33,092 nt of DNA. Origin: Candidatus Omnitrophota bacterium (GTDB lineage Bacteria > Omnitrophota > Gorgyraeia > Duberdicusellales > 4484-171). The notes beneath the pieces were generated by a model. The model saw nothing but the letters and a program-made list of their open reading frames with translations, searched no databases and was not told where the DNA came from. Where the stretch lies: positions 1 to 33,092 of the forward strand of contig JAHJHM010000127.1 in NCBI GenBank assembly GCA_018823915.1. Reading direction: 5' to 3'. Positions 53 to 31,870 of this stretch are shown here, piece by piece (the stretch's first letter is position 1; each line of letters begins with the position of its first letter). A program made the position numbers and the translations under genes.

Positions 53-87
53 TACAATTTACAATTTGCAATTTGCATTTTGCACTG
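53..87. repeat. Heptamer tandem array, 5 units TACAATT/TGCAATT/TGCATTT/TGCACTG (TGCAAAA family, reverse orientation)
   Basis: Direct reading shows a strict 7-nt period from 53 to 87. It abuts a GAATATTCACTG box (87-98) whose inverted partner is at 126-136. Confidence 0.9.
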
Positions 88-162
88 AATATTCACTGGA
101 TATTCAAAAGAATTTGGACGGTGTTCAGTGAATATTTACCTGCAATATTATTAAATAATCGT

Positions 163-639
163 ATGGATATAAACATTATCGATTATTTGGATAAGGACAG
201 TGTCGTTCTGGGGATACCGCAGAAAAGCAAAAGGAATATTCTTTCCTTTTTTCTAGATCATCTTATTCAGAAGAAGAAGATAAATAAGAAAAATAAGAGT
301 GAGATTTTAAAAAGTATCTTCCAGAGAGAAGAAATGGGTTCTACCGCTATTGGAGGATGCGTTGCTTTCCCTCATGCTCGCTTGGGCTGTGTTAAAAAGA
401 TTGTGCTCTGCCTCGCGATTTCTCATCAAGGAGTCGACTTTGATTCGTTAGACGACGAAAAAGTAAATGTTATCATGCTTCTTATTTCTAATCAAAAAGA
501 GGCAGGTTTACATTTAAAGATGCTTGCTTTTTTAGCAAGGATCTTAAGAGATAAATCTTTTGTCCGGCAATTAAAAAATGTCAAGAGCCAAGAGGAAGCT
601 CTTGGCTTAATGAATAAACAGCAGCAGGCGGTTAGATGA
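163..639 (+). CDS. ptsN: PTS EIIA(Ntr)-type regulatory protein (EIIA-2 fold)
   Basis: ORF 73..639. The loop GGCVAFPHARL matches the EIIA-2 phosphorylatable-His motif. The family-like N-terminus starts at MDINIIDYL (ATG 163). The 30 upstream codons run through the repeat region and are probably untranslated. Confidence 0.85.
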   Translation: MDINIIDYLDKDSVVLGIPQKSKRNILSFFLDHLIQKKKINKKNKSEILKSIFQREEMGSTAIGGCVAFPHARLGCVKKIVLCLAISHQGVDFDSLDDEKVNVIMLLISNQKEAGLHLKMLAFLARILRDKSFVRQLKNVKSQEEALGLMNKQQQAVR

Positions 640-1892
640 AAAAGATTATAAAAATTATAAGGTGGTTTTATCCTGGCCTTAAGGTAAAAAGATGGATAAG
701 TCTTTTAGTAGCAGGAGTGCTTCTTATATTAGTATCGTCTTCTCATTTATCGCAAGATGGTCATCTTATATTAAGAACAGTTTATACAATTTTATTCGCT
801 GTCGGCATAGGGGCATTTATTGCCGGAACTACTTATCTTATAAAAAGTTTTTTTGAGGCTATTTATCCCCATAAAGGAAAAGGTCTAATAGATATAATTT
901 ACGAGAAAAGATTTTTAGCTAAGGGGCCTAAAATTGTCGCTATCGGGGGTGGAACCGGCCTTTCTACAATTTTAGAGGGATTGAAGGAGTATACTTCCAA
1001 CATTACCGCCATTGTTGCCGTTGCTGATGAAGGAGGTTCTTCTGGACGTTTGAGAGAAGAATTTGGTATTCTTCCCCCGGGAGATATAAGGAATTGTTTA
1101 GTTTCTTTAGCAGAGGCCCCGCAGCTTATGCGCGACTTATTTCAGTATCGATTTGTCGAAGGGGGAGGAATAAAGGGCCATAGCTTTGGAAATATTCTTA
1201 TTACCGCCTTAACCGCTGTTACCGGTAGTTTTAAAGACGCGGTAGAGGAATCCAGTAAAGTTTTAGCCATAAGAGGCAGGGTTGTTCCCTGTAGCCTGGA
1301 AAAGATACGTCTTAAGGCGCAATTTTGCGATGGTACGGTAAAAGAAGGAGAAGATAAAATTCCTGATGAAGGAAAGCCGATAGAGAAAGTATTTCTTATC
1401 CCTGGTAATGTCCATCCTAACCCTGAGGCAATAGAAGCAATAAAAGAGGCAGAAATGATAGTTTTTGGCCCGGGAAGTTTATTTACCAGCATTATCCCTA
1501 ATCTTTTAATTGCGCAGATAAGCGAAGAGATTGCCAAAAAAAACGTTATGAAGCTATATATTTGCAATGTTATGACACAATATGGAGAAACGGATGGATT
1601 TACTGCCGCTGATCATTTTGAGGCGCTTATTTCCAATGTTAAGAAAGACGTTATTAATTGCTGCTTAGTTAATTCCGGCCGTCTGGAGTATAAATTGCTC
1701 CCTAAATATGCTAAAGAAAATTCCTTTCCGGTAATTCTTGATCGCCAGAGATTGGAAAAAAGAAAAGTATTAGTTTTTGAAGCCGATGTAGTAAGTAAAA
1801 GTAATTATCTGCGCCATGATTTTAAGAAAGCAGCAAAAGAAATAATGAATATTTATAACTATGGCAAGAAAGTTTGTTTCGACAAACACTAA
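636..1892 (+). CDS. yvcK: YvcK/CofD-family protein (gluconeogenesis factor family) with about 95-aa N-terminal extension containing two hydrophobic helices
   Basis: IVAIGGGTGLSTILEGLK nucleotide-binding motif and PGDIRNCL motif typical of the UPF0052/YvcK family. ATGA overlap with the ptsN stop. Hydrophobic stretches WISLLVAGVLLILV and ILFAVGIGAFIAGTTYLI precede the domain. Confidence 0.85.
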   Translation: MKKIIKIIRWFYPGLKVKRWISLLVAGVLLILVSSSHLSQDGHLILRTVYTILFAVGIGAFIAGTTYLIKSFFEAIYPHKGKGLIDIIYEKRFLAKGPKIVAIGGGTGLSTILEGLKEYTSNITAIVAVADEGGSSGRLREEFGILPPGDIRNCLVSLAEAPQLMRDLFQYRFVEGGGIKGHSFGNILITALTAVTGSFKDAVEESSKVLAIRGRVVPCSLEKIRLKAQFCDGTVKEGEDKIPDEGKPIEKVFLIPGNVHPNPEAIEAIKEAEMIVFGPGSLFTSIIPNLLIAQISEEIAKKNVMKLYICNVMTQYGETDGFTAADHFEALISNVKKDVINCCLVNSGRLEYKLLPKYAKENSFPVILDRQRLEKRKVLVFEADVVSKSNYLRHDFKKAAKEIMNIYNYGKKVCFDKH

Positions 1893-1904
1893 TACCGCGG
1901 GAAG

Positions 1905-2171: not shown

Positions 2172-2178
2172 GTAAAAG

Positions 2179-3936
2179 ATGATTAAATTAAAAGGTATTG
2201 CTGTTTCAGGGGGGATAGGAATAGGGAAAGCCTATTTATTGGGAAAAGAGGAACTCTCTATTCCCAAGAGAAAAATTTCTTACGCGGATATCTCCCGGGA
2301 AATCTATCGATTAGAAGAAGCCTTAATTGAGACACGTAGGGAAATATTAGCTTTGCAGAGGAAAATTCCTCAAGAGCCTGGTTTCGACCATGCTTTAGTT
2401 TTTGAAGCTCACCTTCTTGTCATAGAGGATAGAGTTTTAATTGAAGATGTTATTGGACAAATTAAAGAGAAAAAAATAAACGCGGAATACGCTTTCTCAC
2501 AAAGTGTAAAAAAATATATCGATGCCCTTCTTAAGTTAGATGATGAGTATCTGCGGGAAAGAGTGATAGATATTGAAGATGTTTCCCGCAGGGTATTAAA
2601 GAAGTTCCTCAAAGAAAAGACGGTAAGTTTAGGTGATTTAAAGGAAAAAGTAATTATTGTTGCCCACGACCTGTTTCCTTCCTGGACAGCAACCTTGCCT
2701 AAAGAAAAAGTTTTAGGCTTTATTACCGATATAGGAGGCAAGACCTCTCACACGGCGATTATCGCGCGCAATTTAGGAATTCCCGCTGTAGTTGGTATGC
2801 AAATAGCCACGGAAAATATAAAATCAGAAGATATGATTATTGTTGATGGTTCAGAGGGCTGCGTTTTAGTGCATCCCACAGAAAAAGTTTTAGAGGATTA
2901 TCAGAAAAAGCGCGCTAAATACACACAAGAAATAAAAGCTATCCCTGTTCCCAGGTTATTCAAGGCTTACACTAAAGATAAAAAAGAAGTAATTGTTTCT
3001 GCCAACATAGAACTCCCTGAAGAATTGCCTTTGGTTAAAGAATATAAGGCGGAAGGAGTGGGCCTTTATCGTACAGAATATATATTCTTGGGAAGAGGAG
3101 ATTTACCAAGCGAAGAAGAGCAATATAAAGCATATCTTAATGTGGCAAAGAAAGTAAAGCCTTATTCGGTAATTGTCAGAACAATTGATATCGGAGGAGA
3201 TAAGTTTCTCACTCAACCCCAAGTGCCTAAAGAAATAAGCCCTTTTTTAGGCTGGCGGGCAATTAGATTTTGTTTAGCTCATCCCGAGATATTTAAAATA
3301 CAACTGCGGGCAATTTTAAGAGCGTCTTCCTGGGGGAATGTAAAGATGATGTTCCCGATGATTTCGGGGATAGAGGAGTTGAGGCAGTCCAGGAAACTTT
3401 TAGAAGAATGCAAAAAAGAATTAAAAAAAGAGGGTAAACATTTTGATGAAAATATTTCTCTTGGGACAATGATAGAGGTTCCGTCCGCCGCCTTAACTGC
3501 TGACGTCCTCGCTCGAGAAAGCGATTTTTTTAGTATTGGGACAAATGATTTAATTCAGTATTCTTTAGCTGTAGATAGAGCCAACGAGAAGGTAGCGTAT
3601 CTTTATGAACCGGGACATCCGGCAGTTTTAAAACTAATAAAAAGCGTTATTGATATTGCTCATGAGAATAATATTTGGGTGGGGCTGTGCGGGGAGATGG
3701 CAGGAGAGCTTCTTTTTGCTTTTTTACTTTTAGGATTAGAACTTGATGAATTTAGTATGTCTCCTCCTCAGGTTCCCAAGGTAAAGGAATTGATGAGGAG
3801 TGTGAGTTTTAAGGAGGCTAAGGCGATAGCACAAAAGGCAATGAAGCTTAATACTGCCGGCGAAGTAGAAAGATGTTTGCAAGAAGAGTTAAAGAGAATT
3901 TTGGGGGATGATTTTGATCGACTTCTGCTAGCGTGA
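2179..3936 (+). CDS. ptsI: Phosphoenolpyruvate-protein phosphotransferase (PTS Enzyme I)
   Basis: 585 aa. GGKTSHTAIIARNLGIPAVVG phospho-His motif and a C-terminal PEP-utilising TIM-barrel motif (GTNDLIQY). Confidence 0.95.
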   Translation: MIKLKGIAVSGGIGIGKAYLLGKEELSIPKRKISYADISREIYRLEEALIETRREILALQRKIPQEPGFDHALVFEAHLLVIEDRVLIEDVIGQIKEKKINAEYAFSQSVKKYIDALLKLDDEYLRERVIDIEDVSRRVLKKFLKEKTVSLGDLKEKVIIVAHDLFPSWTATLPKEKVLGFITDIGGKTSHTAIIARNLGIPAVVGMQIATENIKSEDMIIVDGSEGCVLVHPTEKVLEDYQKKRAKYTQEIKAIPVPRLFKAYTKDKKEVIVSANIELPEELPLVKEYKAEGVGLYRTEYIFLGRGDLPSEEEQYKAYLNVAKKVKPYSVIVRTIDIGGDKFLTQPQVPKEISPFLGWRAIRFCLAHPEIFKIQLRAILRASSWGNVKMMFPMISGIEELRQSRKLLEECKKELKKEGKHFDENISLGTMIEVPSAALTADVLARESDFFSIGTNDLIQYSLAVDRANEKVAYLYEPGHPAVLKLIKSVIDIAHENNIWVGLCGEMAGELLFAFLLLGLELDEFSMSPPQVPKVKELMRSVSFKEAKAIAQKAMKLNTAGEVERCLQEELKRILGDDFDRLLLA

Positions 3937-3947: not shown

Positions 3948-4679
3948 ATGAGAGTGATAATTCTCGCTGCTGGTTATGGAACAAGATTGTATCCCTTAAC
4001 TCATAGTCTGCCTAAGCCCCTCATTTCCATCAACAACAAACCAATAATAAACTTTTTAATAGAAAAAATAGATAAGTTAAGCAAACAATTTCGCATAAAA
4101 GAAGTGAGAATTGTTTCTAATAATAAGTTTTATAAGGATTTTTTAAATTGGAAAAGGAAATACAAAATGAAGGTAGATATCATTAATAATGGCTCAAATA
4201 CCCCCGCTGATAGACTGGGAGCAACGAGAGATGTTAAGTTTGCTATGGGCAATAAAAAGGGAGATTGGTTAGTGTTGGGTGGAGATAATTTATTTCAAGA
4301 TAATCTATCGAAGTTTATTGAATTTGCCAATAAAAAAAAACCTTATCCTTGTGTGGGGCTTTATGATGTTAGATACAAAAAAGCAGCCATGCAGTTTGGG
4401 GTAGCGAAAATAAACCGTATAAAGAGAGTGGTAGACTTAGAAGAGAAGCCTAAAAAACCATTTTCTTCTTTAACAGCAACCTGCATTTATTTTTTCCCCC
4501 AACGTTCGCTGAAGTTTTTAGATTCATTTCTTTGTGGAGAAATGAATACGGATCTTTTAGGAAAGTATATAGCGTGGTTAGCTAAGCAAACAAAAGTCTT
4601 TGGGTATATGCTGGGTGGGAAATGGATGGATATCGGCCATTACGATTCTTTAAAATTGGCAGAGGAGGAGTTTAAATGA
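3948..4679 (+). CDS. Sugar-phosphate nucleotidyltransferase (NTP_transferase family)
   Basis: N-terminal ILAAGYGTRLYPLT signature. ATG 3948 gives the canonical family N-terminus. The track start at 3933 is a GTG overlapping the ptsI stop. Confidence 0.8.
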   Translation: MRVIILAAGYGTRLYPLTHSLPKPLISINNKPIINFLIEKIDKLSKQFRIKEVRIVSNNKFYKDFLNWKRKYKMKVDIINNGSNTPADRLGATRDVKFAMGNKKGDWLVLGGDNLFQDNLSKFIEFANKKKPYPCVGLYDVRYKKAAMQFGVAKINRIKRVVDLEEKPKKPFSSLTATCIYFFPQRSLKFLDSFLCGEMNTDLLGKYIAWLAKQTKVFGYMLGGKWMDIGHYDSLKLAEEEFK

Positions 4680-5746
4680 AATTAAAAAGCTTAAGGGATA
4701 AAATAGATAGAATAGATGAAAAAATTCTCAAACTTCTTAACCAAAGAGCAGGGGAGGCCATAAAGGTTAGTGAGGTAAAAGAAAAAAGCAGCTCAAGAAT
4801 TTATTCTCCCGCAAGAGAGGCAAATATTTTAAATCAGCTTAAAAAAATGAATAAAGGCCCCTTGACTACCGAAGACACTGAAATGGTTTTTGGAGAAATA
4901 TTATCTGTATGCCGTTCTCAGAAGACAGTTTTAAGGGCAGCTTATTTAGGCCCGCAAGGGACGTTTACTCATTTAGCGGCAATAAAAAAGTTTGGAAAGA
5001 AATCAGAATATATCCCTAGCGAAAGCATTGGCGAGGTGTTTGAAAGAGTAGAAAAAGGAGAAGTTGATTACGGAGTGGTCCCTATAGAGAATTCTATTGA
5101 AGGGGTGGTTAATTATACCTTAGATATGTTTTTCGTATCAACGCTTAAGATATGCGCAGAGGTAACTTTAAACGTTTCTCATTCTCTCTTAGGCACTTCT
5201 CTTAAATTCGCGAAGTCTAAGATAAAAAAGATATACTCCAATCCTCAAGTCTTCGCTCAGTGCCGGAAGTGGATTTCCCGTAACATGCCTGATATAGAGT
5301 TAATTCCTGTTTCTTCTACTGCTTACGCGGCGCAAGCCGTAAAGAAAGATAGCGAAGCCGCTTGTATCGGAAATAAAATTCTCACCAACCTTTACGGGCT
5401 TAAAATTATTGCCACGCCATTGCAAGATTCCCCGCACAACTTTACCCGGTTTTTAATTATTGCTAAAAATGACAGCCTTCCTTCAGGGAGAGATAAAACT
5501 TCCATTCTATTCTCGATAAAGGATAAAGTAGGCGCTTTATGCAATGTGCTTACTTCGTTTGAAAAATATCGAATATCACTCACTAAGATAGAGTCGCGCC
5601 CTTCTAAGAGAAAACCCTGGGAATACTATTTTTTCGTGGATTTCACCGGACATAGAAATCTTACTCGAGTGCAAAAAGTGTTAAAAGAACTAAAAAAGGG
5701 GTGCCTTTTTGTGAAAATTCTTGGTTCTTACCCTACGGAAAGCTAA
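4676..5746 (+). CDS. pheA: Bifunctional chorismate mutase / prephenate dehydratase (P-protein)
   Basis: N-terminal CM_2 helix (LRDKIDRIDEKILKLLNQRA), a PDT domain (YLGPQGTFTH) and a C-terminal ACT domain (ESRPS motif). ATGA overlap with the upstream gene. Confidence 0.93.
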   Translation: MKLKSLRDKIDRIDEKILKLLNQRAGEAIKVSEVKEKSSSRIYSPAREANILNQLKKMNKGPLTTEDTEMVFGEILSVCRSQKTVLRAAYLGPQGTFTHLAAIKKFGKKSEYIPSESIGEVFERVEKGEVDYGVVPIENSIEGVVNYTLDMFFVSTLKICAEVTLNVSHSLLGTSLKFAKSKIKKIYSNPQVFAQCRKWISRNMPDIELIPVSSTAYAAQAVKKDSEAACIGNKILTNLYGLKIIATPLQDSPHNFTRFLIIAKNDSLPSGRDKTSILFSIKDKVGALCNVLTSFEKYRISLTKIESRPSKRKPWEYYFFVDFTGHRNLTRVQKVLKELKKGCLFVKILGSYPTES

Positions 5747-5750
5747 TAAA

Positions 5751-5841
5751 CACGAATATACACGAATTACGTACGAATGTACACGAATAAAAATTTGTGT
5801 TGATTTGTGTGAGTTTTAAGGTGGATTAGTGCTGATTCGTG
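5751..5841. repeat. Phased repeat block: 4 x (C)ACGAAT at 10-11 nt spacing followed by inverted ATTTGTG/ATTAGTG/ATTCGTG copies; folds as a long imperfect hairpin
   Basis: ACGAAT at 5752, 5762, 5773, 5783. ATTTGTG at 5793 and 5803. ATTAGTG at 5825. ATTCGTG at 5835. Pairing 5773-5788 with 5793-5810 uses G-U wobbles and is followed by GTTTT, so this may be the pheA terminator. Confidence 0.8.
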
Positions 5842-5849: not shown

Positions 5850-6989
5850 ATGAGATTTATAAAAGAACTAAAGAATCTAAAAGTTTATAAACCGGGTAAA
5901 CCAATTGAAGAAGTTAAGGGATCTTTAGGTTTGGAAACGGTATACAAGCTTGCCTCCAATGAAATTCCTTTCCCTCCTTTGTATATCCGTAAAAGTATCC
6001 AGGCAGAATTAGAGAATATTAATCGTTACCCCCAAGGAAGTTGTCATTATTTAAGAAAATTTTTAGCTAAAAAATTTAGAATCAATGAGAGCCAAATTGT
6101 TTTTGGTAATGGCTCGGATGAAATAATTGTGCTTACCTTGCGAGCCCTAATAGAAAAAGGCGATGAGGTTATAGTTGCTTATCCTACATTTTTAATTTAT
6201 GAAATTCAGGCAGCGATTTCCGGAGCGAAAGTGGTAAGGGTTCCTTTAAAAGAGTTTCATTATGATTTGCCAGAGCTGGCGAAAAAAGTAAACAGAAAGA
6301 CGAAAATCATTTTCATTGCTAATCCGGATAATCCCACAGGAACTTATTGTAACCATAAAGAAATAAGTAATTTTCTTAAATTAATACCCAAAAGCGTATT
6401 GGTTTATTTTGATGAGGCTTATTTTGAGTTTGCCCCTGGAGATTTCCCAAAAACAGAGCAATTTTTAAGGATGAGAGATAATGTTATTTTTACCCGAACA
6501 TTCTCTAAGGCTTATGCCTTGGCAGGCTTGCGAATTGGTTATGGAATCACAACACTTAAAATCGCTGCTGCCTTAAATAAAGTCAGAGAACCGTTTAATA
6601 TAAATAGATTTGCTCAAGTAGCTGGTGTTTGCGCTTTAGAAAATAAAGGTTTTTTAAAAAAGGTGATACCTTACATTGAGAGAGAAAAAAAGTATCTCTA
6701 TGGTGGTTTAAGTGGTTTAGGAGTTTTTTTTGTAGAAAGCGCCGCTAATTTTATCCTTATTGATCTTAAAAAAGATACAAAAAGTCTTTATAATTACCTT
6801 TTAAAGAAAGGGGTTATCGTACGGGAATTAAGAGGCTGGGGGTTGAAGAATTTTTTTCGAGTGACTATTGGATTGCATAAGGAAAATAAGAAATTCATAG
6901 GATGCCTTAGGGGCTATCTACAAAAAAGTAATAAGTGCGGTCGTAGTATAGTTGAATTTAAACATTGTCCCTCGCGCCTGAATATCTGA
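5850..6989 (+). CDS. hisC: Histidinol-phosphate/aromatic aminotransferase (class II PLP aminotransferase)
   Basis: YPDP-like region (NPDNPTG) and the SFSKAYALAGLRIGY PLP-lysine motif. ATG 5850 is preferred over GTG 5829. The last approx 20 codons (KSNKCGRSIVEFKHCPSRLNI) read into repeat sequence; see findings. Confidence 0.88.
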   Translation: MRFIKELKNLKVYKPGKPIEEVKGSLGLETVYKLASNEIPFPPLYIRKSIQAELENINRYPQGSCHYLRKFLAKKFRINESQIVFGNGSDEIIVLTLRALIEKGDEVIVAYPTFLIYEIQAAISGAKVVRVPLKEFHYDLPELAKKVNRKTKIIFIANPDNPTGTYCNHKEISNFLKLIPKSVLVYFDEAYFEFAPGDFPKTEQFLRMRDNVIFTRTFSKAYALAGLRIGYGITTLKIAAALNKVREPFNINRFAQVAGVCALENKGFLKKVIPYIEREKKYLYGGLSGLGVFFVESAANFILIDLKKDTKSLYNYLLKKGVIVRELRGWGLKNFFRVTIGLHKENKKFIGCLRGYLQKSNKCGRSIVEFKHCPSRLNI

Positions 6990-7033
6990 AAAATCTCTTG
7001 CGACATTTTTCAGAAGCGCTTCGGGATCAATTC
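6964..7033 (+). repeat. 70-nt structured dispersed repeat, copy A
   Basis: 67 of 70 positions are identical to 12212-12281. Internal perfect 9-bp stem CTGAAAAAT/ATTTTTCAG with a 10-nt loop, and an outer CCC..GCGC/GCGC..GGG stem. The hisC stop codon (6987-6989) lies inside it. Confidence 0.9.
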
Positions 7034-7078
7034 GCAGACGGGCTTCGCCCTACGATTTATGTCGCATAAATCGTCTGC
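7034..7078 (+). other. Compound hairpin in the DAHP synthase 5' leader
   Basis: GCAGACG (7034-7040) pairs with CGTCTGC (7072-7078). Inner stem ATTTATG (7055-7061) pairs with CATAAAT (7065-7071). A GGGC-TTC-GCCC mini-hairpin lies at 7040-7050. The SD follows 6 nt later. Confidence 0.6.
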
Positions 7079-7096
7079 TCATTGAGGAGGTACAAA

Positions 7097-8113
7097 ATGA
7101 TTATTGTATTTAAAAAAAGTGCCAGTCAGAATGAAATAGACCGCGTTATTAAAAGAGTAGAAAAGCTGGGTTTGAAAGCAATGATTTCTCAAGGGATCGA
7201 AAGAACTATTATTGGGGTTATTGGGCCTGAGGATATTATAAGGCTGCAGCCGTTAGAGGTTTTTCCTGGAGTAGAGAAGGTGATGACTGTCCTTGCTCCT
7301 TATAAGTTAGTATCCCGTGAGTTCAAAAAAGAAGATAGTGTTATAAAAATAAAGGATGAAGTAGCAATTGGTTCTAAAAAAATAATAGTTATAGCCGGGC
7401 CTTGTTCTGTGGAAACTAAAGAACAATTAAGGCAGACGGCAGCAAAAGTTAGAGAGGCGGGAGTATTAATTTTGAGAGGAGGAGCATTTAAACCGCGCAC
7501 TTCTCCTTATGCTTTTCAAGGATTGGGAGAAGAGGGATTAAAAATCTTAAAAGATGTATCTGATGAGTTTGGTGTTCAAACAGTTACTGAAGTTATGGAT
7601 ACAAGAGATGTGGAGCTAGTGGCAAAATATGCCGATATTTTGCAGATTGGGGCTAGGAATATGCAGAATTTTAATCTTCTAAAAGAAATAGGCCAAACGA
7701 GAAAACCGGTTATTTTAAAAAGGGGATTGAGCGCTACGATAAAAGAATTGTTGATGAGTGCGGAGTATATCCTCTCAGGAGGAAATTTCAATGTAATTTT
7801 ATGCGAGCGGGGGATAAGAACATTCGAAGACTTTACCCGCAATACGCTTGATTTAAGTGCTGTTCCTGCCATAAAGGGGCTTTCCCACTTGCCGGTTATT
7901 GTTGATCCTTCTCATGCCACCGGAATGCGGAGTTTGATTTCTCCTTTAAGCAGGGCAGCGGTTGCCTGTGGAGCAGACGGACTTTTAATTGAGGTTCACC
8001 CTAGTCCAGAGGAAGCGTTGAGCGACGGATCTCAACAGTTACTTCCTGAGCAATTTGCGGCTCTTATGGAAGAATTAAAAAAAGTCGCTCTGGCAGTAGA
8101 TAGGGAAATATGA
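7097..8113 (+). CDS. aroF: 3-deoxy-7-phosphoheptulonate (DAHP) synthase, type I-beta with N-terminal ferredoxin-like regulatory domain
   Basis: IAGPCSVE and [13 protein letters not shown] motifs. GAGGAGG SD at 7084-7090 precedes ATG 7097. The track start 7082 is a TTG inside the SD. Confidence 0.9.
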
Positions 8114-8117: not shown

Positions 8118-8152
8118 AAAATGCAAAATGCAAAATGCAAAATGCAAAATTG
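8118..8152. repeat. Heptamer tandem array, AAAATGC x4 + AAAATTG
   Basis: Four perfect units plus one variant, starting 5 nt after the DAHP synthase stop. Confidence 0.95.
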
Positions 8153-9035: not shown

Positions 9036-9673
9036 TTATCGCTATAGATGGCCCTGCCGGTTCAGGAAAAACAAGTATAGCTAAGAGGTTGGCGAAAAAA
9101 TTGAATATGTTTTATTTGGATACAGGAGGAACTTACCGCGCACTGACCTTAAAAGCCTTAGAGGGCGATTTAGATTTGAAAGATGAAGTTGCCCTGCAAG
9201 CCATAGCAAAGAATTTAAATTTAAAAATAGAGCAAGATCGAATTTATCTTGACGGTAGAGATGTCAGCGAAAAAATAAGGGCTCCCTTTATAGATAAAAA
9301 TATTTCAAAGATTGTTTCTTACCCTAAGGTAAGAGAAGCGATGGTTTCTTTGCAAAGGAGGATGGCTGAGAGTGGAGATTTTGTCGTAGAAGGCAGAGAT
9401 ATAACTACGGTGGTTTTCCCGCAAAGTAAATTTAAGTTTTATCTTGATGCAGAGTTTGCAGTAAGAGTTCAAAGAAGGTTTAAGGAGTTAGAGAATAAAG
9501 GAGTACAAATTGATTTTGAAGAATTAACAGATGATTTAAAAAGAAGAGATGAGGCAGATATAAATAGAGAAGTTGGCGCTTTAAAACAAAGCCCTGATGC
9601 TGTATATATAGATAGTACCAATTTGAGTCTTGATGAAGCGGCGGAGAAAATTGTAGGGTATATAAGAAATTAG
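9032..9673 (+). CDS. cmk: Cytidylate kinase
   Basis: IAIDGPAGSGKTSIAKRLA P-loop, typical length, ATGA overlap with tyrA. Confidence 0.93.
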   Translation: MIIAIDGPAGSGKTSIAKRLAKKLNMFYLDTGGTYRALTLKALEGDLDLKDEVALQAIAKNLNLKIEQDRIYLDGRDVSEKIRAPFIDKNISKIVSYPKVREAMVSLQRRMAESGDFVVEGRDITTVVFPQSKFKFYLDAEFAVRVQRRFKELENKGVQIDFEELTDDLKRRDEADINREVGALKQSPDAVYIDSTNLSLDEAAEKIVGYIRN

Positions 9674-9680
9674 AGAAACA

Positions 9681-9715
9681 GTTTATGGTTTATGGTTGAT
9701 GGTTTATAGGTTGGA
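9681..9715. repeat. Heptamer tandem array GTTTATG x2, GTTGATG, GTTTATA, GGTTGGA
   Basis: Strict 7-nt period starting 8 nt after the cmk stop. Confidence 0.9.
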
Positions 9716-12163: not shown

Positions 12164-12205
12164 ATGATAGATGAAAGATATGAGATACTGGATTCTAGAT
12201 GCTAG
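12164..12205. repeat. Heptamer tandem array, 6 units ATNNNAG/ATNNNGG (ATGATAG, ATGAAAG, ATATGAG, ATACTGG, ATTCTAG, ATGCTAG)
   Basis: Strict 7-nt period after the lepB stop. Immediately followed by copy B of the 70-nt repeat. Confidence 0.85.
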
Positions 12206-12211
12206 TAAAAT

Positions 12212-12281
12212 ATTGCCCCTCGCGCCTAAATATCTGAAAAATCTCTTGCGACATTTTTCAGAAGCGCTTCGGGATTAATTC
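12212..12281 (+). repeat. 70-nt structured dispersed repeat, copy B
   Basis: See copy A. Three substitutions, none in the 9-bp inner stem. Confidence 0.9.
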
Positions 12282-12328
12282 TCCGCCTTAGTCCAGCAGG
12301 ACACCCTGTTGGGTAGGCGGAGAATTAA
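12275..12328 (+). promoter_or_regulatory. 54-nt two-tier hairpin in the leader of the glycine-zipper lipoprotein gene, 3' arm abutting the SD
   Basis: Outer 14-bp perfect stem TTAATTCTCCGCCT/AGGCGGAGAATTAA. Inner 8-bp stem CCAGCAGG/CCTGTTGG (one G-U) with loop ACAC. SD AAGGAGG at 12327-12333 overlaps the last 2 nt of the stem. Confidence 0.6.
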
Positions 12329-16386: not shown

Positions 16387-16459
16387 AATTGAAACGCAAA
16401 TAATTACAGATGAAACCGTGACGGTAAACGGAGTTTAGGAAATCAGCGAAAGCCCGCGT

Positions 16460-20843: not shown

Positions 20844-20882
20844 CTGGAGTTTTCCTATTTTTTTCTGACCGGAAAACTCCAG
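20844..20882 (+). other. 12-bp perfect hairpin directly after the hisD stop
   Basis: CTGGAGTTTTCC (20844-20855) and GGAAAACTCCAG (20871-20882) with a 15-nt T-rich loop. No downstream U tract. Confidence 0.7.
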
Positions 20883-20886
20883 AGTT

Positions 20887-20982
20887 CAAAATGCAAAATG
20901 AAAAATGCAAAAGTTTAAATCAACCATTTGATTACACTCAGGGTAGATGGCGAGCGAAGTCGAACCATCAAAATTCAAAAGT
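20887..20982 (+). repeat. Composite element: CAAAATG-family heptamers (x4), a 54-nt GC-richer core, then CAAAATT CAAAAGT heptamers
   Basis: Heptamers at 20887-20914 and 20969-20982. The core contains GATTACACTCAGGGTAG (20930-20946) and a GATGG-CGA-GCGAAG-TCG-AA-CCATC hairpin (20946-20969). Confidence 0.75.
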
Positions 20983-21618: not shown

Positions 21619-21656
21619 TAGTTTATAGCTATAAACCATACACCATAAACTATAAA
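21619..21656. repeat. Palindrome GTTTATAGCTATAAAC plus heptamer array CTATAAA CCATACA CCATAAA CTATAAA (reverse complement of the GTTTATG family)
   Basis: 7-nt period from 21629 to 21656. This is the reverse complement of the units seen at 9681-9715 and 25364-25398. Confidence 0.85.
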
Positions 21657-21673
21657 CTTTTAGAAATAACAGT

Positions 21674-22438
21674 ATGATAATTATTCCCGCTATTGATTTG
21701 TGGAAAGGAAATGTGGTTCGTTTTATGCGGGGAAGCCCGGATTTCTCTAAGGTTTATAGTGCGAACCCTATAGAAATAGCAAGAAAATGGGCCAAAGAAG
21801 GAGCGAGGCTTCTTCATCTTGTCGATCTTTCTGCGGCTTTAAGTGAAGGAGACAATGTAGAAATTATTAGAGAGATTTTAAAAGAAGTGAACATAGACGT
21901 AGAAATAGGAGGAGGGATAAGAGATTTAAGGCGCGCGGAAGAGTTAATTCAGATGGGAGCTAAACGTTTGATAATAGGGACAAAAGGATTAGATGAGAGA
22001 TTCCTTGAAGATTTGATGCTTTCTTTAGGCAGAGATAGAGTAGCGGTTAGTGCGGATGTCATTGACGCGTTTGTGGCCGTAGAAGGGTGGCAGAGAAAAA
22101 CAGAGCTTAGAGGGTTAGATTTTATAAAATACCTTCAGGATAAAGGGGTAAAGTGGGTAATTTATACTGACATTTCTCGCGATGGGACATTGCAGGGAGT
22201 AAATTTGGAAGCGATAAAGAAACTTGCCATATTTGAAAAAATAAACCCCGCCCTTTGTTCGAAAGAACGAAGCTTTACAAGGGGCGGGATAAATCTTATA
22301 GTTTCAGGAGGAGTGTCTTGCCTGGAGGATATTAAAAACATAAAAAAAGAAGCACCTTTTGTTTGGGGAATAATTGCCGGAAAAGCTTTGTATGAAGAAA
22401 GAGTCAATCTACCTCAGGCAATTTCCCTGCTTGATTAA
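21674..22438 (+). CDS. hisA: Phosphoribosylformimino-5-aminoimidazole carboxamide ribotide isomerase (HisA)
   Basis: IIPAIDLWKGNVVR start, IGGGIRD, DISRDGTLQG, SGGVS motifs. Contains a 16-codon in-frame insertion at 22241-22293. Confidence 0.92.
   Translation: MIIIPAIDLWKGNVVRFMRGSPDFSKVYSANPIEIARKWAKEGARLLHLVDLSAALSEGDNVEIIREILKEVNIDVEIGGGIRDLRRAEELIQMGAKRLIIGTKGLDERFLEDLMLSLGRDRVAVSADVIDAFVAVEGWQRKTELRGLDFIKYLQDKGVKWVIYTDISRDGTLQGVNLEAIKKLAIFEKINPALCSKERSFTRGGINLIVSGGVSCLEDIKNIKKEAPFVWGIIAGKALYEERVNLPQAISLLD
22241..22293 (+). mobile_element. In-frame 48-nt insertion in hisA: 43-nt GC-rich palindromic element bounded by 5-nt direct repeat ATAAA
   Basis: ATAAA at 22241-22245 and 22289-22293. 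Arms CCCGCCCTTTG (22247-22257) and CAAGGGGCGGG (22278-22288) form an 11-bp stem with one G-U. Removing 48 nt restores EKINLIVSGG, which matches the spacing I recall for Thermotoga HisA. Confidence 0.65.
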
Positions 22439-22519
22439 AGGGGACAGACGATTAAAGGGGACAGACACTTTTTTATTGAATAAAAAAGTGTCTGTCCCCT
22501 TTAATCCCCCCTTTAATCC
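22433..22519. repeat. Tandem 17-mer (GATTAAAGGGGACAGAC x2) forming a 26-bp perfect palindrome, extendable to 37 bp; possible bidirectional terminator between hisA and rnfC
   Basis: Arms 22450-22475 and 22481-22506 are perfectly complementary, with loop TTGAA. An outer 11-bp pairing joins 22433-22443 with 22508-22518. The first unit contains the hisA stop codon. Confidence 0.85.
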
Positions 22520-22525
22520 AAGATA

Positions 22526-23812
22526 ATGATCAAGATAGAAGAACATAAACAGCCTCAAGTTGGCTTGGCAACAGAGGGGTTTCTTAATCCTAAGAAACTA
22601 TATCTTCCTTTGTCTCAACACACAGGAAGGCCGTCTTTGCCTTGCGTAAACATAGCCGATATAGTAGAAGAAGCAGACCTGCTTGCCAAAGAAGATGGGT
22701 TCATTTCAGCAAGGCTTCATTCGCCTAAAAGAGGAAAGATTTTAAATATAACAGAAGGGTGTCATCCTAGTTTAAAAAGGGCAAAATGTATTATCCTGGA
22801 GTGCCAGGCGCAAGAAAAAGAATATTCTTATAGGAAGAATGTAGAAAGTTTGGACAAAGAAGAATTGCGGGAAATTATCAAAAATAGCGGCATCGTGGGT
22901 TTAGGAGGCGCGGCTTTCCCTACTCATGTAAAGTTAAACCCGCCTAAAAAAATTAATACTTTGATTATTAATGGCTGCGAGTGTGAACCTTATTTGGCTT
23001 GTGATTATCGCTTAATGATAGAGAATCTAAGAGAGATATTCAAGGGGATAGAGATAATTTGTAAAATCATCGAACCGGATGAAGTAATTTTTGCCCTAGA
23101 AGATAATAAAACCGAAGTAGTCAAAAAATTAAATCTTTTAATAAGCACTAAACGAGTTAATTTGCCTAAAACCAAATCAGCTATTTTAAAAACTGCTTAT
23201 CCGCAAGGCGCGGAAAAACAACTGATCTATTCTGTTACCAGGCGAAAAGTCCCTTCGGGGAGACTTCCTTTTGATGTTGGGTGTTTGGTTTGTAATGTCG
23301 CCACAGCTTTCGCAGTTTATGAGGCAGTTTATCTAAATAAGCCGTTAATCGAACGATTAGTAAGTTTTGCTGGAGACGCGATAGCAACTCCAAAAAACAT
23401 ACGGGTAAAGATAGGAACAACCTTGAAAGAACTTTTTGATGCGGGGTATCTAAAATTTAAGCATGAACCAAGAAAGATTATCTGTGGCGGTCCGATGATG
23501 GGAGTAGCTTTAGATGGTTTGGATTATCCTATTTTAAAAGGTACTGGTGGATTTTTGTTTTTAAGCAAGAATTTAGATATTGCAGAAGAAGACCCTTGTA
23601 TTAAATGCGCAAGATGCGTAGATTCTTGTCCGATGAATCTCCTGCCTTTGGAGCTAGCCAGGAGAATAAAAAAGGAAGAATTTGCTGCCTTAGATGATTT
23701 TAGCATTGCCGATTGTATTGAGTGCGGCTGCTGTAACTATGTTTGTCCGGCAAAGATACCTCTAGTGCATTATATAAAAGTAGGGAAGAAATATACTTCG
23801 AGGAAGGATTAA
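22526..23812 (+). CDS. rnfC: Rnf electron-transport complex subunit C
   Basis: GLGGAAFPTHVKL NADH/FMN-site motif. Two 4Fe-4S motifs, CIKCARCVDSCP and CIECGCCNYVCP. Confidence 0.93.
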   Translation: MIKIEEHKQPQVGLATEGFLNPKKLYLPLSQHTGRPSLPCVNIADIVEEADLLAKEDGFISARLHSPKRGKILNITEGCHPSLKRAKCIILECQAQEKEYSYRKNVESLDKEELREIIKNSGIVGLGGAAFPTHVKLNPPKKINTLIINGCECEPYLACDYRLMIENLREIFKGIEIICKIIEPDEVIFALEDNKTEVVKKLNLLISTKRVNLPKTKSAILKTAYPQGAEKQLIYSVTRRKVPSGRLPFDVGCLVCNVATAFAVYEAVYLNKPLIERLVSFAGDAIATPKNIRVKIGTTLKELFDAGYLKFKHEPRKIICGGPMMGVALDGLDYPILKGTGGFLFLSKNLDIAEEDPCIKCARCVDSCPMNLLPLELARRIKKEEFAALDDFSIADCIECGCCNYVCPAKIPLVHYIKVGKKYTSRKD

Positions 23813-23883
23813 GGATTCAGCATCCAGTATTCAGTGCTTAGCGCTGAGTAAAAAATCATAAGTCATAACGCATAACTGCTAGT
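23808..23883. repeat. Spacer built almost wholly of heptamers: 10 full consecutive units plus a terminal 6-nt unit GCTAGT (ATTAAGG ATTCAGC ATCCAGT ATTCAGT GCTTAGC GCTGAGT AAAAAAT CATAAGT CATAACG CATAACT GCTAGT)
   Basis: The 7-nt register is unbroken from the rnfC stop codon (23810-23812) to the rnfD ATG (23884). Confidence 0.8.
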
Positions 23884-24816: not shown

Positions 24817-25364
24817 AAGAGGCATTTAAAATAATAGTAGTTTTAACCGTTATATGTTTAATTTGTGCTTTTTTTCTTTCTTTTGTTTTTAGTGTAGCCA
24901 AAGAAAAAATAGAGATGAATGCTAAAAGGGCAATTGAAGAGGGGATTTCTAAATTAGCCCCTTGCGCTAAAAGGGTAGAGGAGATCAAATTAAAAGACGA
25001 GGTTGTGTATAAACTTTTTGATGAGCAGGATAATTCGGTTGGCTATGCTTTTTTGGCCCAAGGCCAAGGCTATCAGGGAAAGATAAAAATTTTAGCCGTG
25101 GTTGACTCATCTTTAGAAAAATTAGAAGGTATAGAAGTAGTGGAATCAGTAGAAACCCCTGGATTAGGAGCAAGAATTACAGAGGCTCTTTTCATGGAGC
25201 AGTTTAAAAAGTTAACTGTAATTCCCAAAATAGAATATGTAAAGGAAGAAGTAGAGAAAGATAATCAGATAATGGCAATTACTGGAGCGACTGTCACATC
25301 CAAGGCAGTAGTGAATATTTTGAATAAGAGGATAGAGGAGCTAAGAGAAGAATTAAAGGGGTAG
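24813..25364 (+). CDS. rnfG: Rnf complex subunit G
   Basis: Single N-terminal TM helix, FMN_bind domain with ITGATVTSKAV motif. GTG start overlaps the rnfD stop. Confidence 0.9.
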   Translation: MKEAFKIIVVLTVICLICAFFLSFVFSVAKEKIEMNAKRAIEEGISKLAPCAKRVEEIKLKDEVVYKLFDEQDNSVGYAFLAQGQGYQGKIKILAVVDSSLEKLEGIEVVESVETPGLGARITEALFMEQFKKLTVIPKIEYVKEEVEKDNQIMAITGATVTSKAVVNILNKRIEELREELKG

Positions 25365-25398
25365 TTTATGGCTGATAGTTTATAGTTTATGGCTGAGA
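25364..25398. repeat. Heptamer array GTTTATG GCTGATA GTTTATA GTTTATG GCTGAGA spanning the rnfG stop and rnfE start
   Basis: 7-nt period. The rnfE ATG (25389) is the ATG of a GTTTATG unit. Confidence 0.85.
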
Positions 25399-26009
25399 TT
25401 ATAGAATCAAAAATTAAAATGAAAAAGGAATTTATTAAAGGTTTGTGGAAGGAACATCCAATTTTAAGGCAACTGTTGGGGATGTGTCCGGCCTTGGCGG
25501 TAACTACTTCGGCAATAAACGGAATCTCTATGGGCTTAGCAGTTATTTTTGTCCTTTTTTTCTCCTCCTTGGTTGTTTCTTTGATAAAGAAAGTTATTCC
25601 TCCTCAAGTGCGCATTGCTGTTTATACCGTAATTATCGCTACTTTTGTTACTGTTGTAGATATATTTTTTAAAGCAAATTTTCCTCAAATTAGCCGTGCC
25701 CTCGGCCCCTACCTTCCTTTAATTGTGGTTAATTGCATTATTCTTGGAAGATGTGAAGCCTTTGCTTCTAAAAATAGTGTATTGGTTTCATTGCTTGATG
25801 CTTTAGGGATGGGTTTAGGATTTATGTGGGGATTATTTCTTCTTGGTTCAATAAGGGAGATCCTTGGTTTCGGGAGTTTGTTAGGTGTAAAGATGATGCC
25901 TCCTGAATACAATCCTTTAATAATAATGATTCTGCCCGCGGGAGCATTTTTGGTGCTAGGGTTTTTAGTAGCGGTGATGAATAGATTAGAATTAAGAATT
26001 AAGGATTAA
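25389..26009 (+). CDS. rnfE: Rnf complex subunit E
   Basis: GLWKEHPILRQLLGMCPALAVT motif. The start is uncertain: ATG 25389 lies inside a heptamer repeat, and ATG 25419 is the alternative. The C-terminus and stop are encoded by the TTAAGGA array. Confidence 0.9.
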   Translation: MAEIIESKIKMKKEFIKGLWKEHPILRQLLGMCPALAVTTSAINGISMGLAVIFVLFFSSLVVSLIKKVIPPQVRIAVYTVIIATFVTVVDIFFKANFPQISRALGPYLPLIVVNCIILGRCEAFASKNSVLVSLLDALGMGLGFMWGLFLLGSIREILGFGSLLGVKMMPPEYNPLIIMILPAGAFLVLGFLVAVMNRLELRIKD

Positions 26010-26026
26010 GGATTAAGGATTAAGTA
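25985..26026. repeat. Heptamer array ATTAGAA TTAAGAA TTAAGGA x3 TTAAGTA
   Basis: 7-nt period. Encodes the last 8 codons and the TAA stop of rnfE, and provides the AAGGA SD for rnfA (ATG 26031). Confidence 0.9.
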
Positions 26027-26625: not shown

Positions 26626-27447
26626 ATGAAGGAAGTACAGGCTTCATTGTTGGTTTTAGGATTAACAGGATTTAGCTTCTCTCTTCTTTTGGCTTTTTTG
26701 AGTAAAAAATTAAAAGTCAAGGAGGATGCCCGGATAGAGAAAATTTTAAGTATTTTACCGGGCCTAAATTGCGGTGCCTGTGGAGTTAGTGGATGTAGGG
26801 TATTTGCGCAGGCAGTAGTAAAAGAAGGGAAAATTTTTTCTGGGTGTCTTCCTGCGGGGGAAGGAATGAATAAAGAGATAGCTAAGGCTTTAGGAATAGA
26901 GACAAGCGTAGTCAAGAGGAAATCAGTAGCTGTATGCCGTTGTGGAGCGGATGATAAGGAGAAAAAAGTTTCTTGTCTTTATCAGGGGCCAAAGACTTGT
27001 AAGGCGGCAGATTTAATCGGAGGAGCGATCGATTGTTTATATGGCTGCTTTGGTTTTGGTGATTGCGAAGCAGTCTGTCCTCCGGGAGCAATTACTGTTG
27101 CCAAGGGAAAGGTTTATGTGGATATAGAAAAGTGTATTGGTTGTGGAAAGTGTCTACCTGCTTGCCCGAGCAATCTTTTTGAACTTTTGCCTTTGGCGGA
27201 GAATTTAGATACTTATTACTATATTGCCTGCAACAACAGGGAAAAGGGAGTTAATGTAAAGAAAGTATGCAGCCGCGGCTGTATTGCTTGCGGGATATGT
27301 ACTAAAGGTGAAAATTCACCATTTTATTTAAAAGATAACCTTGCTTTTATAGAGTATAAAAAGATAGTAGAGAATGAACCTTTAGAAGAGGCAAAGAATA
27401 AATGTCCTACTAAGTGTATAATGAAATTTACAGTTCATAGCTCATAG
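26626..27447 (+). CDS. rnfB: Rnf complex subunit B (polyferredoxin)
   Basis: N-terminal TM helix, CGACGVSGC cluster motif, further CxxCxxCxxxCP ferredoxin motifs. The last 5 codons and the stop lie in the AGTTCAT heptamer array. Confidence 0.92.
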   Translation: MKEVQASLLVLGLTGFSFSLLLAFLSKKLKVKEDARIEKILSILPGLNCGACGVSGCRVFAQAVVKEGKIFSGCLPAGEGMNKEIAKALGIETSVVKRKSVAVCRCGADDKEKKVSCLYQGPKTCKAADLIGGAIDCLYGCFGFGDCEAVCPPGAITVAKGKVYVDIEKCIGCGKCLPACPSNLFELLPLAENLDTYYYIACNNREKGVNVKKVCSRGCIACGICTKGENSPFYLKDNLAFIEYKKIVENEPLEEAKNKCPTKCIMKFTVHSS

Positions 27448-27473
27448 TTGATAGTTTATAGCCTACAGAATGT
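27432..27473. repeat. Heptamer array AGTTCAT AGCTCAT AGTTGAT AGTTTAT AGCCTAC AGAATGT
   Basis: 7-nt period. TAG occurs at 27438, 27445 (the rnfB stop), 27452 and 27459, so a stop falls in all three frames. Confidence 0.9.
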
Positions 27474-28142: not shown

Positions 28143-28563
28143 TTTGTCATTAATTATTTTTTTACTTTTTACTTTTTTGAGTTTCTCTCAAGATGAAGAA
28201 GTAATAGAGGTGAAGGTGAGCAAAGATAAGGTGGAAACAGGAGAGGTTTTTACTTACAGAATAAAGATTGAGGGGAGTTTTACTCAGCCGGAGTTAACCC
28301 TACCTGAATTTAAAGATTTTAAAGTTATTTCTCAAAGCCGATCAAAAAATTATGCTTTTAAACAAGGAAGAAAAAAAGTAATACATAATTTAGTCTACCA
28401 ACTTTTTGCTCCTAATCCCGGTGCGTTTACCATAAAAGAAGCGGTTTTGGAAGATAGGGGCAAAAAATTCAAAAGCGAATCTATCACTATTGAAGTTAAA
28501 GGGCGGCCCCTGGAAGAGAAGAGAAAAATCCTCCCCTATATTGAGAAAGGAACTGAAATTTAG
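28126..28563 (+). CDS. Small secreted protein, BatD-like N-terminal domain (tentative)
   Basis: Signal peptide LIIFLLFTFLSFSQ. The pattern V..GEVFTYRIKIEG...PELTLPEFKDFKV resembles the BatD/oxygen-tolerance family N-terminal domain. Recalled similarity only. Confidence 0.5.
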   Translation: MLRLFNLSLIIFLLFTFLSFSQDEEVIEVKVSKDKVETGEVFTYRIKIEGSFTQPELTLPEFKDFKVISQSRSKNYAFKQGRKKVIHNLVYQLFAPNPGAFTIKEAVLEDRGKKFKSESITIEVKGRPLEEKRKILPYIEKGTEI

Positions 28564-29239: not shown

Positions 29240-29248
29240 AAGGGGAAA

Positions 29249-31633: not shown

Positions 31634-31636
31634 TGT

Positions 31637-31715
31637 AAATATTCAGTGAACCACGTCTAAATTTTTCTGAATATTCAGTGCAAAATGCAAACTGCAAACT
31701 GCAAATTGCATACCC
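31637..31715. repeat. Two AATATTCAGTG boxes followed by heptamer array CAAAATG CAAACTG x2 CAAATTG CATACCC
   Basis: Boxes at 31638-31648 and 31670-31680. Heptamers at 31681-31715. Positions 31668-31691 are the exact reverse complement of 72-95. Confidence 0.9.
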
Positions 31716-31814
31716 TAACGGGCACAAGCAAGTTAAAATTACTTATTTTTCTTTGTCGTAATTACTGACTTTGCAATAATCTCCATTAGTTTTGCTATTT
31801 CTTTTAAGTTTATT

Positions 31815-31870
31815 TTGCATTTTTCACTTTGCATTTTGCAATTTGCAATAGAATGTACTTCACTTACTAC
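31815..31870. repeat. Heptamer array TTGCATT TTTCACT TTGCATT TTGCAAT x2 (+3 degenerate units), inverted relative to 31681-31715
   Basis: 7-nt period. Reverse-complement family of the array about 105 nt upstream. Confidence 0.85.

Follow-up and report, generated by a model that had tools for sequence, protein, structure and literature searches.

Seven-base arrays and their positions

We analysed a 33,092-nt stretch of DNA from a Candidatus Omnitrophota bacterium (contig JAHJHM010000127.1; the whole stretch is called the window here). The window has a G+C content of 37% and carries, among other genes, cmk, lepA, lepB, htrA, alaS, hisD, hisB, hisA, the rnf genes and metH. Short tandem arrays of seven-base units lie between many of these genes and at their ends, and these arrays are the subject of this work. 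A preliminary description, made from the sequence alone, had drawn attention to the arrays and had judged the host not to be a cyanobacterium. That judgement was correct: the closest LepA proteins among species representatives came from Candidatus Omnitrophota metagenome-assembled genomes (72-73% identity), and the RnfA homologues carry the source names Omnitrophica or Omnitrophota.

Tandem Repeats Finder called 13 period-7 arrays in the window, at 51-84, 8118-8150, 9681-9712, 16362-16379, 17697-17715, 17739-17756, 20887-20912, 21631-21657, 25362-25390, 25991-26024, 28159-28177, 31679-31710 and 31812-31847. We also scanned for segments that match themselves at a fixed lag (mismatches allowed; periods 2-15), with 30 dinucleotide-preserving shuffles as the control, a kind of control that the preliminary description had proposed. 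At lag 7 there were 10 such segments in the window and none in the 30 shuffles. Every other period gave 0 or 1 segment, with the exception of the harmonic 14. All 14 intervals listed in the preliminary description were periodic, as was the heptamer pair it had noted within alaS (lag-7 identity, 0.55-1.0; empirical P <= 0.012 relative to random windows of equal length). Its wording of a strict 7-nt period is too strong for the degenerate arrays at 23808-23883 (lag-7 identity, 0.62), 25364-25398 (0.64) and 27432-27473 (0.69) and for the tail part of 31815-31870 (0.55).

Of the 18 spacers that measure 20 nt or more, 12 bear an array, in agreement with the earlier claim that arrays occupy most of the intergenic spacers. 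They account for 1.6% of all nucleotides in the window but for 24% of those between genes. Open reading frames (ORFs) take up 95% of the window, yet 8 of 10 arrays fall outside them, so the location is mainly non-coding. About 20 further contigs that are 98.9-100% identical to the window (from other NCBI metagenome-assembled genomes, ENA, Logan and a JGI metagenome) bear the same arrays, all of which are shorter than one sequencing read. The arrays of the window, with the hairpins and cores that accompany them, are as follows.

51-87, reverse strand: TGCAAAT-family array in reverse orientation (4.9 copies; lag-7 identity, 0.86)
94-139: hairpin "head" of an 85-nt module, after the array at 51-87
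8118-8152, forward strand: perfect (AAAATGC)x4.7 array (100% matches), beginning 4 nt past the DAHP synthase stop codon
9681-9715, forward strand: GTTTATG array in the cmk-lepA spacer, copy number polymorphic
12164-12205, forward strand: degenerate ATGATAG array after lepB (lag-7 identity, 0.71; P 0.003)
16362-16387, forward strand: (AGTTCAT)x2.6 array directly after the htrA stop codon, then a short inverted segment, GTGAACTA, able to pair with the array
17697-17756, forward strand: two ACTACGA arrays (17697-17715 and 17739-17756) on either side of a 23-nt core, in frame within alaS
20844-20982, forward strand: after hisD, a 12-bp-stem hairpin (20844-20882) and a CAAAATG array (20887-20914), which a 54-nt core separates from two further units (20969-20982)
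21620-21657, no strand assigned: GTAGTTTATAG, then the inverted array CTATAAAC/CATAAAC (GTTTATG family, reverse), between hisB and hisA
23803-23883, forward strand: degenerate arrays, first of GGATTAA/GGATTCA type and then of ..CATAA type, filling the entire 71-nt rnfC-rnfD spacer
25362-25398, forward strand: TAGTTTA/TGGCTGA array with a 14-nt super-period, from the rnfG stop codon
25985-26026, forward strand: ATTAAGG/GGATTAA array (96% matches) filling the rnfE-rnfA spacer, copy number polymorphic
27432-27473, forward strand: AGTTCAT/AGTTGAT/AGTTTAT array overlapping the rnfB stop codon
28159-28177, forward strand: (TTTTTAC)x2.7 in the signal-peptide region of a BatD-like ORF, absent from the preliminary description
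31635-31715, forward strand: hairpin head (31637-31680; hairpin region z = -3.4) plus TGCAAAN array (31679-31715) after metH, the second copy of the 85-nt module
31812-31849, reverse strand: TGCAAAT-family array in reverse orientation, sense to a convergent minus-strand gene and forming an inverted pair with 31679-31710

The arrays at 23803-23883 encode the final codons and the stop codon of rnfC, and the array at 25985-26026 encodes the last 8 codons and the stop codon of rnfE. The alaS arrays sit in a variable loop that is ~7 amino acids longer than its counterpart in Aquifex AlaS, and they were found in all strains. A repeat of another period, 10 nt (ACACGAAT plus 2 nt, ~4 copies), occupies a similar position at 5747-5790, directly after the pheA stop codon.

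Relative to the upstream stop codon, arrays begin at +4 (8118), +7 (9681) and 0 (16362), or overlap the stop (23808, 25985 and 27432), and the stop codon often belongs to the first unit. For co-directional genes, we counted the arrays that begin close to the upstream stop codon (-15 to +10 nt) and those that end equally near the downstream start codon. Stop-adjacent arrays were the more numerous in Omnitrophota loci (8 of 19 versus 5 of 19) and in two other sets (20 of 49 versus 8 of 49, and 30 of 72 versus 10 of 72), as expected from the earlier observation that arrays typically begin at or near stops. A start codon is reached by some arrays, as at rnfD and rnfA, but the majority have their anchor at the stop codon upstream; start-codon calls are uncertain. 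We read this placement as a tolerance filter, since a duplication at or after a stop codon spares the upstream protein, whereas the start region is constrained.

Stops in all three frames had been put forward as a functional rationale for the arrays. Such stops occurred at similar rates on the sense and antisense strands (raw counts for three array sets, 11/24 versus 7/24, 14/49 versus 8/49 and 11/72 versus 10/72), with no clear sense-strand excess. Hence, we rejected all-frame stops as a general explanation; they may explain which arrays can overlap a stop codon.

Period-7 arrays are not confined to this contig, a possibility the preliminary description had left open. In a comparison set of 80 loci centred on LepA, each from a different species of Omnitrophota or Nitrospirota (together 1.34 Mb), we found 33 period-7 arrays, in 18 loci, compared to 3 arrays of period 6 and 2 of period 8; no other period exceeded 5 except the harmonic 14 (24). 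Twenty-two of the 33 lie outside ORFs, which cover 91% of those loci. The distribution is patchy, with no arrays in the four closest relatives and five each in L024 and L047. In a viral-contig collection, a three-unit motif pattern had 81 matches at period 7 and 8 at an equally specified period 8. The period-6 version had at least 120 matches, so period 7 did not exceed period 6 in this motif scan; the period-6 matches may be in-frame coding repeats. Period 7 thus exceeded both of its neighbours in the window and in the 80 species, and it exceeded period 8 in the motif scan. The comparison with periods 6 and 8 by which the preliminary description would have refuted a specific family therefore did not refute it.

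The arrays did not coincide with known signals. Rfam covariance models gave no match at the arrays and only sub-threshold hairpin matches elsewhere, at 22430-22525. A tRNA scan likewise gave none at the arrays. No intrinsic terminator coincided with an array, and terminator-like counts in the window equalled those in shuffles. The promoter scan found none at arrays; the single clear promoter, at 13870-13898, is without an array. Array RNA was predicted to fold no better than shuffles (z ~0), and good hairpins were predicted only beside arrays or where arrays pair with short inverted partners.

Array-free relatives, strain differences and probable copying between loci

The cmk-lepA spacer, which holds the GTTTATG array in the window, is short and array-free in five relatives (L002, L003, L005, L007 and L008); in L004 it holds a different, degenerate inverted array. 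For the rnf operon, we compared seven species with RnfA 84-88% identical to that of the window, of which six had comparable junctions, as the L708 contig begins at rnfA. In five of these (L704, L705, L707, L709 and L710), the overlap between rnfC and rnfD measures 17-20 nt and that between rnfG and rnfE 4 nt, and rnfE and rnfA overlap or are separated by a 3-nt gap, except for a 48-nt spacer in L704. Four of the five are without arrays; L710 has one, outside the rnf operon. The same junctions in the window measure 71 nt (rnfC-rnfD), 54 nt (rnfG-rnfE) and 21 nt (rnfE-rnfA) and are made of arrays. RnfE ends in MNRLELRIKD in the window and in MNRIE followed by Q, R, E or K in the relatives, a gain of ~5 array-encoded residues; the profile matches of RnfC and RnfE end normally. 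Arrays of other units lie at other junctions, with TAGTCTG before rnfD in L706 and (CAGACAA)x7 beginning 5 nt past the rnfA stop codon in L708. Because the junctions of relatives are array-free, overlapping or furnished with their own units, the arrays are derived, gained repeatedly in some lineages and dispensable for the operon. We concluded that the arrays are lineage-specific insertions rather than conserved signals. They part genes that overlap in relatives, sometimes overwriting the last few unconstrained codons.

Near-identical strains differ in array length by unit steps. Three contigs differed from the window at two arrays, by exactly one unit each: L095 and L101 have an additional GTTTATG (+7 nt) at 9681, and L091 lacks one ATTAAGG (-7 nt) at 25998, so that its rnfE-rnfA spacer measures 14 nt instead of 21 nt, with no change in RnfE. 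There were no non-unit indels within any array among the strains, and the other small indels across ~33 kb were one homopolymer change and one divergent patch in rnfB. In both polymorphic arrays the changed unit sits in the most perfect run. Whole-unit changes in the most perfect runs are a signature of slipped-strand mispairing, and our data point to this process. We concluded that array length changes in steps of one whole unit, the behaviour expected of slipped-strand mispairing in replication. In a test for contingency-locus behaviour, the unit variants kept the flanking ORFs intact, with no frame or promoter switching.

Two larger strain differences were detected. A ~143-nt insertion resembling a miniature inverted-repeat transposable element (MITE) lies at ~13861, exactly at the plsY stop codon, in L001 (1533-1675) and L092, and a second tandem copy of a 74-nt element lies at ~7035 in L092 and L094. 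Neither falls in an array or leaves a 7-bp duplication.

The arrays fall into unit families. TGCAAAN units occur at 5 loci, with the orientation reversed at 2; a single TRGYTNA family, also with 5 loci, includes both GTTTATG and AGTTCAT as variants; and GGATTAA units occur at 23803 and 25985. Nineteen array pairs match within 1 mismatch in any phase or orientation, compared to 3.5 expected (P ~5e-4), so the families are dispersed and non-random, as had been claimed. Larger similarities accompany them. The segment 55-139 is an inverted copy of 31635-31708 (85-93% identity), the 85-nt module consisting of a 46-nt hairpin and a TGCAAAN array. In the segments 9677-9709 and 21629-21661 (88% complementary), variant units follow one another in the same order but with the orientation reversed. 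RnfC and RnfE both end in KD followed by the stop codon, encoded by the same AAGGATTAAGGATT, and this ending is absent from all relatives compared. Because of the inverted module, the shared order of variant units and the identical protein ends, we concluded that some copying between loci occurs, for which the route would be gene conversion, ectopic recombination or another mobility mechanism. Local slippage alone does not yield shared unit families. The preliminary description had argued for a dispersed family rather than local slippage; the clustering and the 85-nt module uphold the dispersal, but the unit-step changes at two arrays in three strain contigs indicate that slippage acts as well.

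Matches to TGCAAAN arrays were numerous in other collections, with at least 120 in metagenomes and 81 in the viral collection, including high-G+C contigs. Permuted control heptamers gave 92, at least 120 and 63 matches. Because these controls are just as common, the presence of a unit in several phyla does not speak for a universal family, and lineages can share units by chance; we rejected the view that TGCAAAN is a cross-phylum family of a special kind. Over many loci, TGCAAAN arrays were sense in 32 cases and antisense in 22, with ORF calls that are crude, especially at high G+C, and we dropped the idea of a strong sense-strand bias. Sense copies tended weakly to lie nearer the stop codon (Fisher P = 0.08).

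Slippage as the probable explanation, and its rivals

Heptamer arrays have been noted in bacteria since 1990, as the short tandemly repeated repetitive (STRR) sequences. The preliminary description named these as its precedent, an apt comparison, but STRR sequences are not the only one. According to later summaries of the 2007 survey of Mrazek, Guo and Shah, heptanucleotides are the most abundant long simple sequence repeat (SSR) in most prokaryotic genomes, and ~7 nt was proposed to be the stretch contacted by polymerase, favouring slippage (PMC4679880, PMC4692102). Heptamers have also been described in Xanthomonas (GGGAATC) and Nostoc (GGGGAYT) (PMC4692102), in the ctxAB promoter (TTTTGAT heptads; bioRxiv 10.1101/2021.05.14.444153) and in marine Beggiatoaceae, Cyanobacteria and Bacteroidetes, where TAACTGA is suspected of acting in translation (PMC4679880). 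Our literature search on repeats in Omnitrophota found nothing relevant, and heptamers go unmentioned in a 2025 short tandem repeat survey. None of the published units STRR1-3 (CCCCAGT, TTGGTCA and CAACAGT), TAACTGA, GGGAATC, TTTTGAT, TTCAAAA or WATCACW occurs in tandem in the window, where TAACTGA is present as one single copy.

The arrays resemble STRR sequences in their tandem 7-nt units, the several families per genome and the many dispersed intergenic copies. They differ in that STRR sequences belong to heterocystous cyanobacteria, whereas the arrays studied here are in Omnitrophota, are short, with 3-6 A/T-rich units, and for the most part sit right at a stop codon within an operon. With the long SSR class, again as the 2007 survey is summarised (PMC4679880, PMC4692102), they share the dominance of period 7, the non-coding location, the scattered phylogenetic occurrence and the attribution to slippage. 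The features of that class found here are array length above chance, an excess of period 7 over its neighbours, a mainly non-coding location and whole-unit length changes. Omnitrophota and Nitrospirota lie outside that survey, and unit-step strain polymorphism, the origin at overlapping junctions and abutment to stop codons are added here.

Other known repeats are less close. TAACTGA repeats are also short arrays (2-6 copies) that are abundant intergenically, often near weak Shine-Dalgarno sequences and suspected of a post-transcriptional role (PMC4679880), but they are a single unit found just upstream of start codons, whereas the window has several families mostly anchored at the upstream stop. 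GGGAATC and GGGGAYT arrays are likewise intergenic, sometimes in inverted pairs, and vary in length between close relatives (PMC4692102); unlike the A/T-rich arrays of the window, most of which are unable to form a G-quadruplex, they are G-rich and quadruplex-forming. Repetitive extragenic palindromic (REP) sequences, bacterial interspersed mosaic elements and MITEs are small non-coding repeats at gene ends in both orientations, and the 85-nt hairpin-plus-array module behaves similarly. The arrays, however, are not palindromic and are without terminal inverted repeats or target duplications, and no gene for a REP-associated tyrosine transposase or other transposase was seen. Contingency-locus SSRs also show unit-step copy-number differences between strains, but the changes observed here leave the reading frames and promoter spacing of surface genes alone, and RnfE is the same after the loss of 7 nt.

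We concluded that the arrays are most likely of the STRR or long SSR kind, here in Candidatus Omnitrophota, and recent insertions. They sit where a compact genome tolerates extra DNA, in the region from the upstream stop codon to the downstream start codon. On balance, we think it probable that slippage drives them, that they have spread to stop-proximal sites where they are tolerated, and that they are in large part neutral or selfish. New arrays may be seeded from sequence at the local gene end, or from an existing array through ectopic copying or gene conversion; the latter route would account for the small number of shared families, the duplicate of the hairpin-plus-array module and the identical C-termini that arrays encode. 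The replication machinery would favour period 7, along the lines proposed by Mrazek et al. Since they are located inside operons, the arrays would be transcribed, presumably as weakly structured A/U-rich spacer RNA, and whatever influence they have on the initiation of translation, on coupling or on the processing of mRNA would be secondary and modest rather than the reason for their existence.

Several observations weigh against this interpretation. The arrays often occur in inverted pairs with the purine-rich (A-rich) arm first on either strand, which pure slippage does not explain. Examples are 31679-31849 in the window, L122 1797-1878, L153 4291-4356 and L277 11189-11522. After de-duplication, purine-first pairs and the opposite arrangement numbered 49 and 6 in TGCAAAN-selected loci, 50 and 31 in control-selected loci and 5 and 1 in unselected loci. 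Because the arrangement reads identically on both strands, this bias represents a real polarity. It recalls the A-tract and U-tract flanks of bidirectional terminators. The recurrence of a few unit families at distant loci is likewise left unexplained by pure slippage, and the patchiness among close relatives suggests a lineage-specific factor. The arrays may also have a function; the related heptamers TTCAAAA and GACYAAT influence recF and recO expression in Nostoc (bioRxiv 10.1101/2022.06.06.494920). Moreover, the sequence sampled is limited to the 33,092 nt of this genome and ~20 kb per relative.

The most serious rival, which we nevertheless regard as unlikely, is that the arrays are cis-acting post-transcriptional elements that tune translation or decay of individual cistrons, through a protein with periodic contacts or by keeping start regions unstructured. 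Arrays lie within the his and rnf operons and are hence transcribed, their RNA is predicted to be weakly structured, several extend to or over start codons without a Shine-Dalgarno sequence, and all four assessable TGCAAAN arrays in the window are sense to the upstream gene. The binding protein would be S1, a cold-shock protein, CsrA or, for units with UAG-N4 spacing, a HutP-like protein; HutP binds UAG-N4 spacing, which the TAG-N4 units here resemble. A post-transcriptional role has been put forward before, both for TAACTGA repeats (PMC4679880) and for the heptamers of Nostoc (bioRxiv 10.1101/2022.06.06.494920). However, orthologous junctions in close relatives are without arrays in intact operons, the units differ between loci and lineages, the orientation of TGCAAAN over many loci is no more than 32 sense to 22 antisense, and no candidate binding protein was found.

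Self-propagation is a second alternative. The arrays would then be a cross-phylum "mobile microsatellite", or a platform for a periodic nucleic-acid-binding factor, rather than passive products of slippage, and would colonise stop-proximal sites, part overlapping genes, overwrite 3' ends and pair purine-first. A trans-acting factor that is present in some lineages and absent from others would explain the patchiness among close relatives. We consider this reading quite doubtful.

It is improbable that the arrays are scars of mobile elements, meaning iterated 7-bp target-site duplications, excision footprints or MITE-like terminal repeats, an origin that the preliminary description had suggested. 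The array-core-array arrangements at alaS (17697-17756) and at 20887-20982 (CAAAAGT on either side of a 61-nt segment) have this appearance, repeated cores of 160-370 nt sit between inverted arrays in unrelated contigs of metagenomic and viral origin, and other dispersed small elements are present in the window. Both cores in the window contain CTCAGGGYAG (17728-17737 and 20937-20946), the only two exact matches in the window, but this match was noted post hoc and is not above chance with 1 mismatch allowed. Most arrays are coreless, there is no transposase in the window, units are gained and lost without any element, and the insertions at 13861 and 7035 lie outside arrays and lack 7-bp duplications. 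The 7-bp duplication or footprint origin thus found no support.

It is highly improbable that the arrays are DNA-level operators or centromere-like sites for a repeat-binding protein, or modulators of local DNA structure. The omega ribbon-helix-helix repressor binds 7-bp heptads in direct and inverted orientation, and the direct and inverted heptads of the window are reminiscent of its operators. The inverted pairs show strand-symmetric polarity, and the A/T-rich TTTTGCA resembles TTTTGAT of ctxAB (bioRxiv 10.1101/2021.05.14.444153) and TTTTGAA of Nostoc. Against this, most arrays lie inside operons just past stop codons rather than at promoters, the only clear promoter has no array, one genome contains many unrelated units, and the window has neither WATCACW tandems nor a gene for a candidate binding protein.

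Finally, chance patterns or assembly artefacts of low-complexity A/T-rich sequence can hardly account for the arrays: the genome is A/T-rich and short-read assemblers can mis-size repeats, but the shuffles gave no lag-7 segments, and because the same arrays, each shorter than a read, occur in ~20 strain contigs assembled independently from different samples and with different assemblers, they are neither chance nor artefact, the latter having been a concern of the preliminary description.

The preference for seven bases, and the function of such arrays, have been a long-standing puzzle since the STRR sequences and the 2007 survey (PMC4679880). With this contig the phenomenon now includes Omnitrophota, and with the comparison set also Nitrospirota; stop anchoring, the parting of overlapping genes, overwritten gene ends and unit-step strain differences are new descriptive points. 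Sister species with overlapping rnf genes, set against the array-separated operon of the window, and co-occurring strains one unit apart provide a clean natural experiment. Because of this contrast, origin, tolerance and effect on operon expression are testable with existing metagenomes and reporter constructs. If neutral, the arrays would still be useful as strain markers and relevant to annotation, in which the gene ends they encode and their resemblance to start codons have to be reckoned with.

Other repeats and strain differences

Several further repeats lie in the window. Copies of the 74-nt dispersed element, 95% identical, occupy two spacers (6960-7033 and 12208-12281). An element containing CCAGCAGGACACCCTGTTGG has inverted copies (82%) at 12289-12327 and 31856-31894, the latter locus having a tandem pair. 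The region between hisA and rnfC contains, at 22430-22525, a perfect palindrome of 28+28 nt and a 17-nt sequence, GATTAAAGGGGACAGAC, directly repeated once. The promoter at 13870-13898 is a perfect TTGACA-17-TATAAT, located before recA and downstream of the insertion site at the plsY stop codon.

Strains differ in other respects. In L083 and L091, the 3' part of rnfB (27363-27396) has dense substitutions and small indels in a background that is >99% identical, which suggests import by recombination. L083 (15691 onward) departs fully from the window at 31720, a few nucleotides past the TGCAAAC array, and thus has a strain-specific rearrangement or insertion at the array border. About 15 single-base differences separate the window from the L082/L093 copy of the contig; at several of these positions the L082/L093 copy matches the other strains.

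Heptamer arrays of other designs were seen in unrelated contigs. In a high-G+C IMG/VR contig (L277), each co-directional spacer consists of a stop codon, an array, a repeated core of 160-370 nt, an inverted array, a Shine-Dalgarno sequence and a start codon. These spacers are at 2819-3061, 4572-4826, 7005-7427, 9081-9301 and 11189-11522, and their cores form two repeated families. In a metagenome contig (L190, 7005-7118), long arrays of GTTATCA, the reverse complement of the published TAACTGA, lie beside (AACTGCR)x14; its source is probably a cyanobacterium or a Beggiatoa-like organism.

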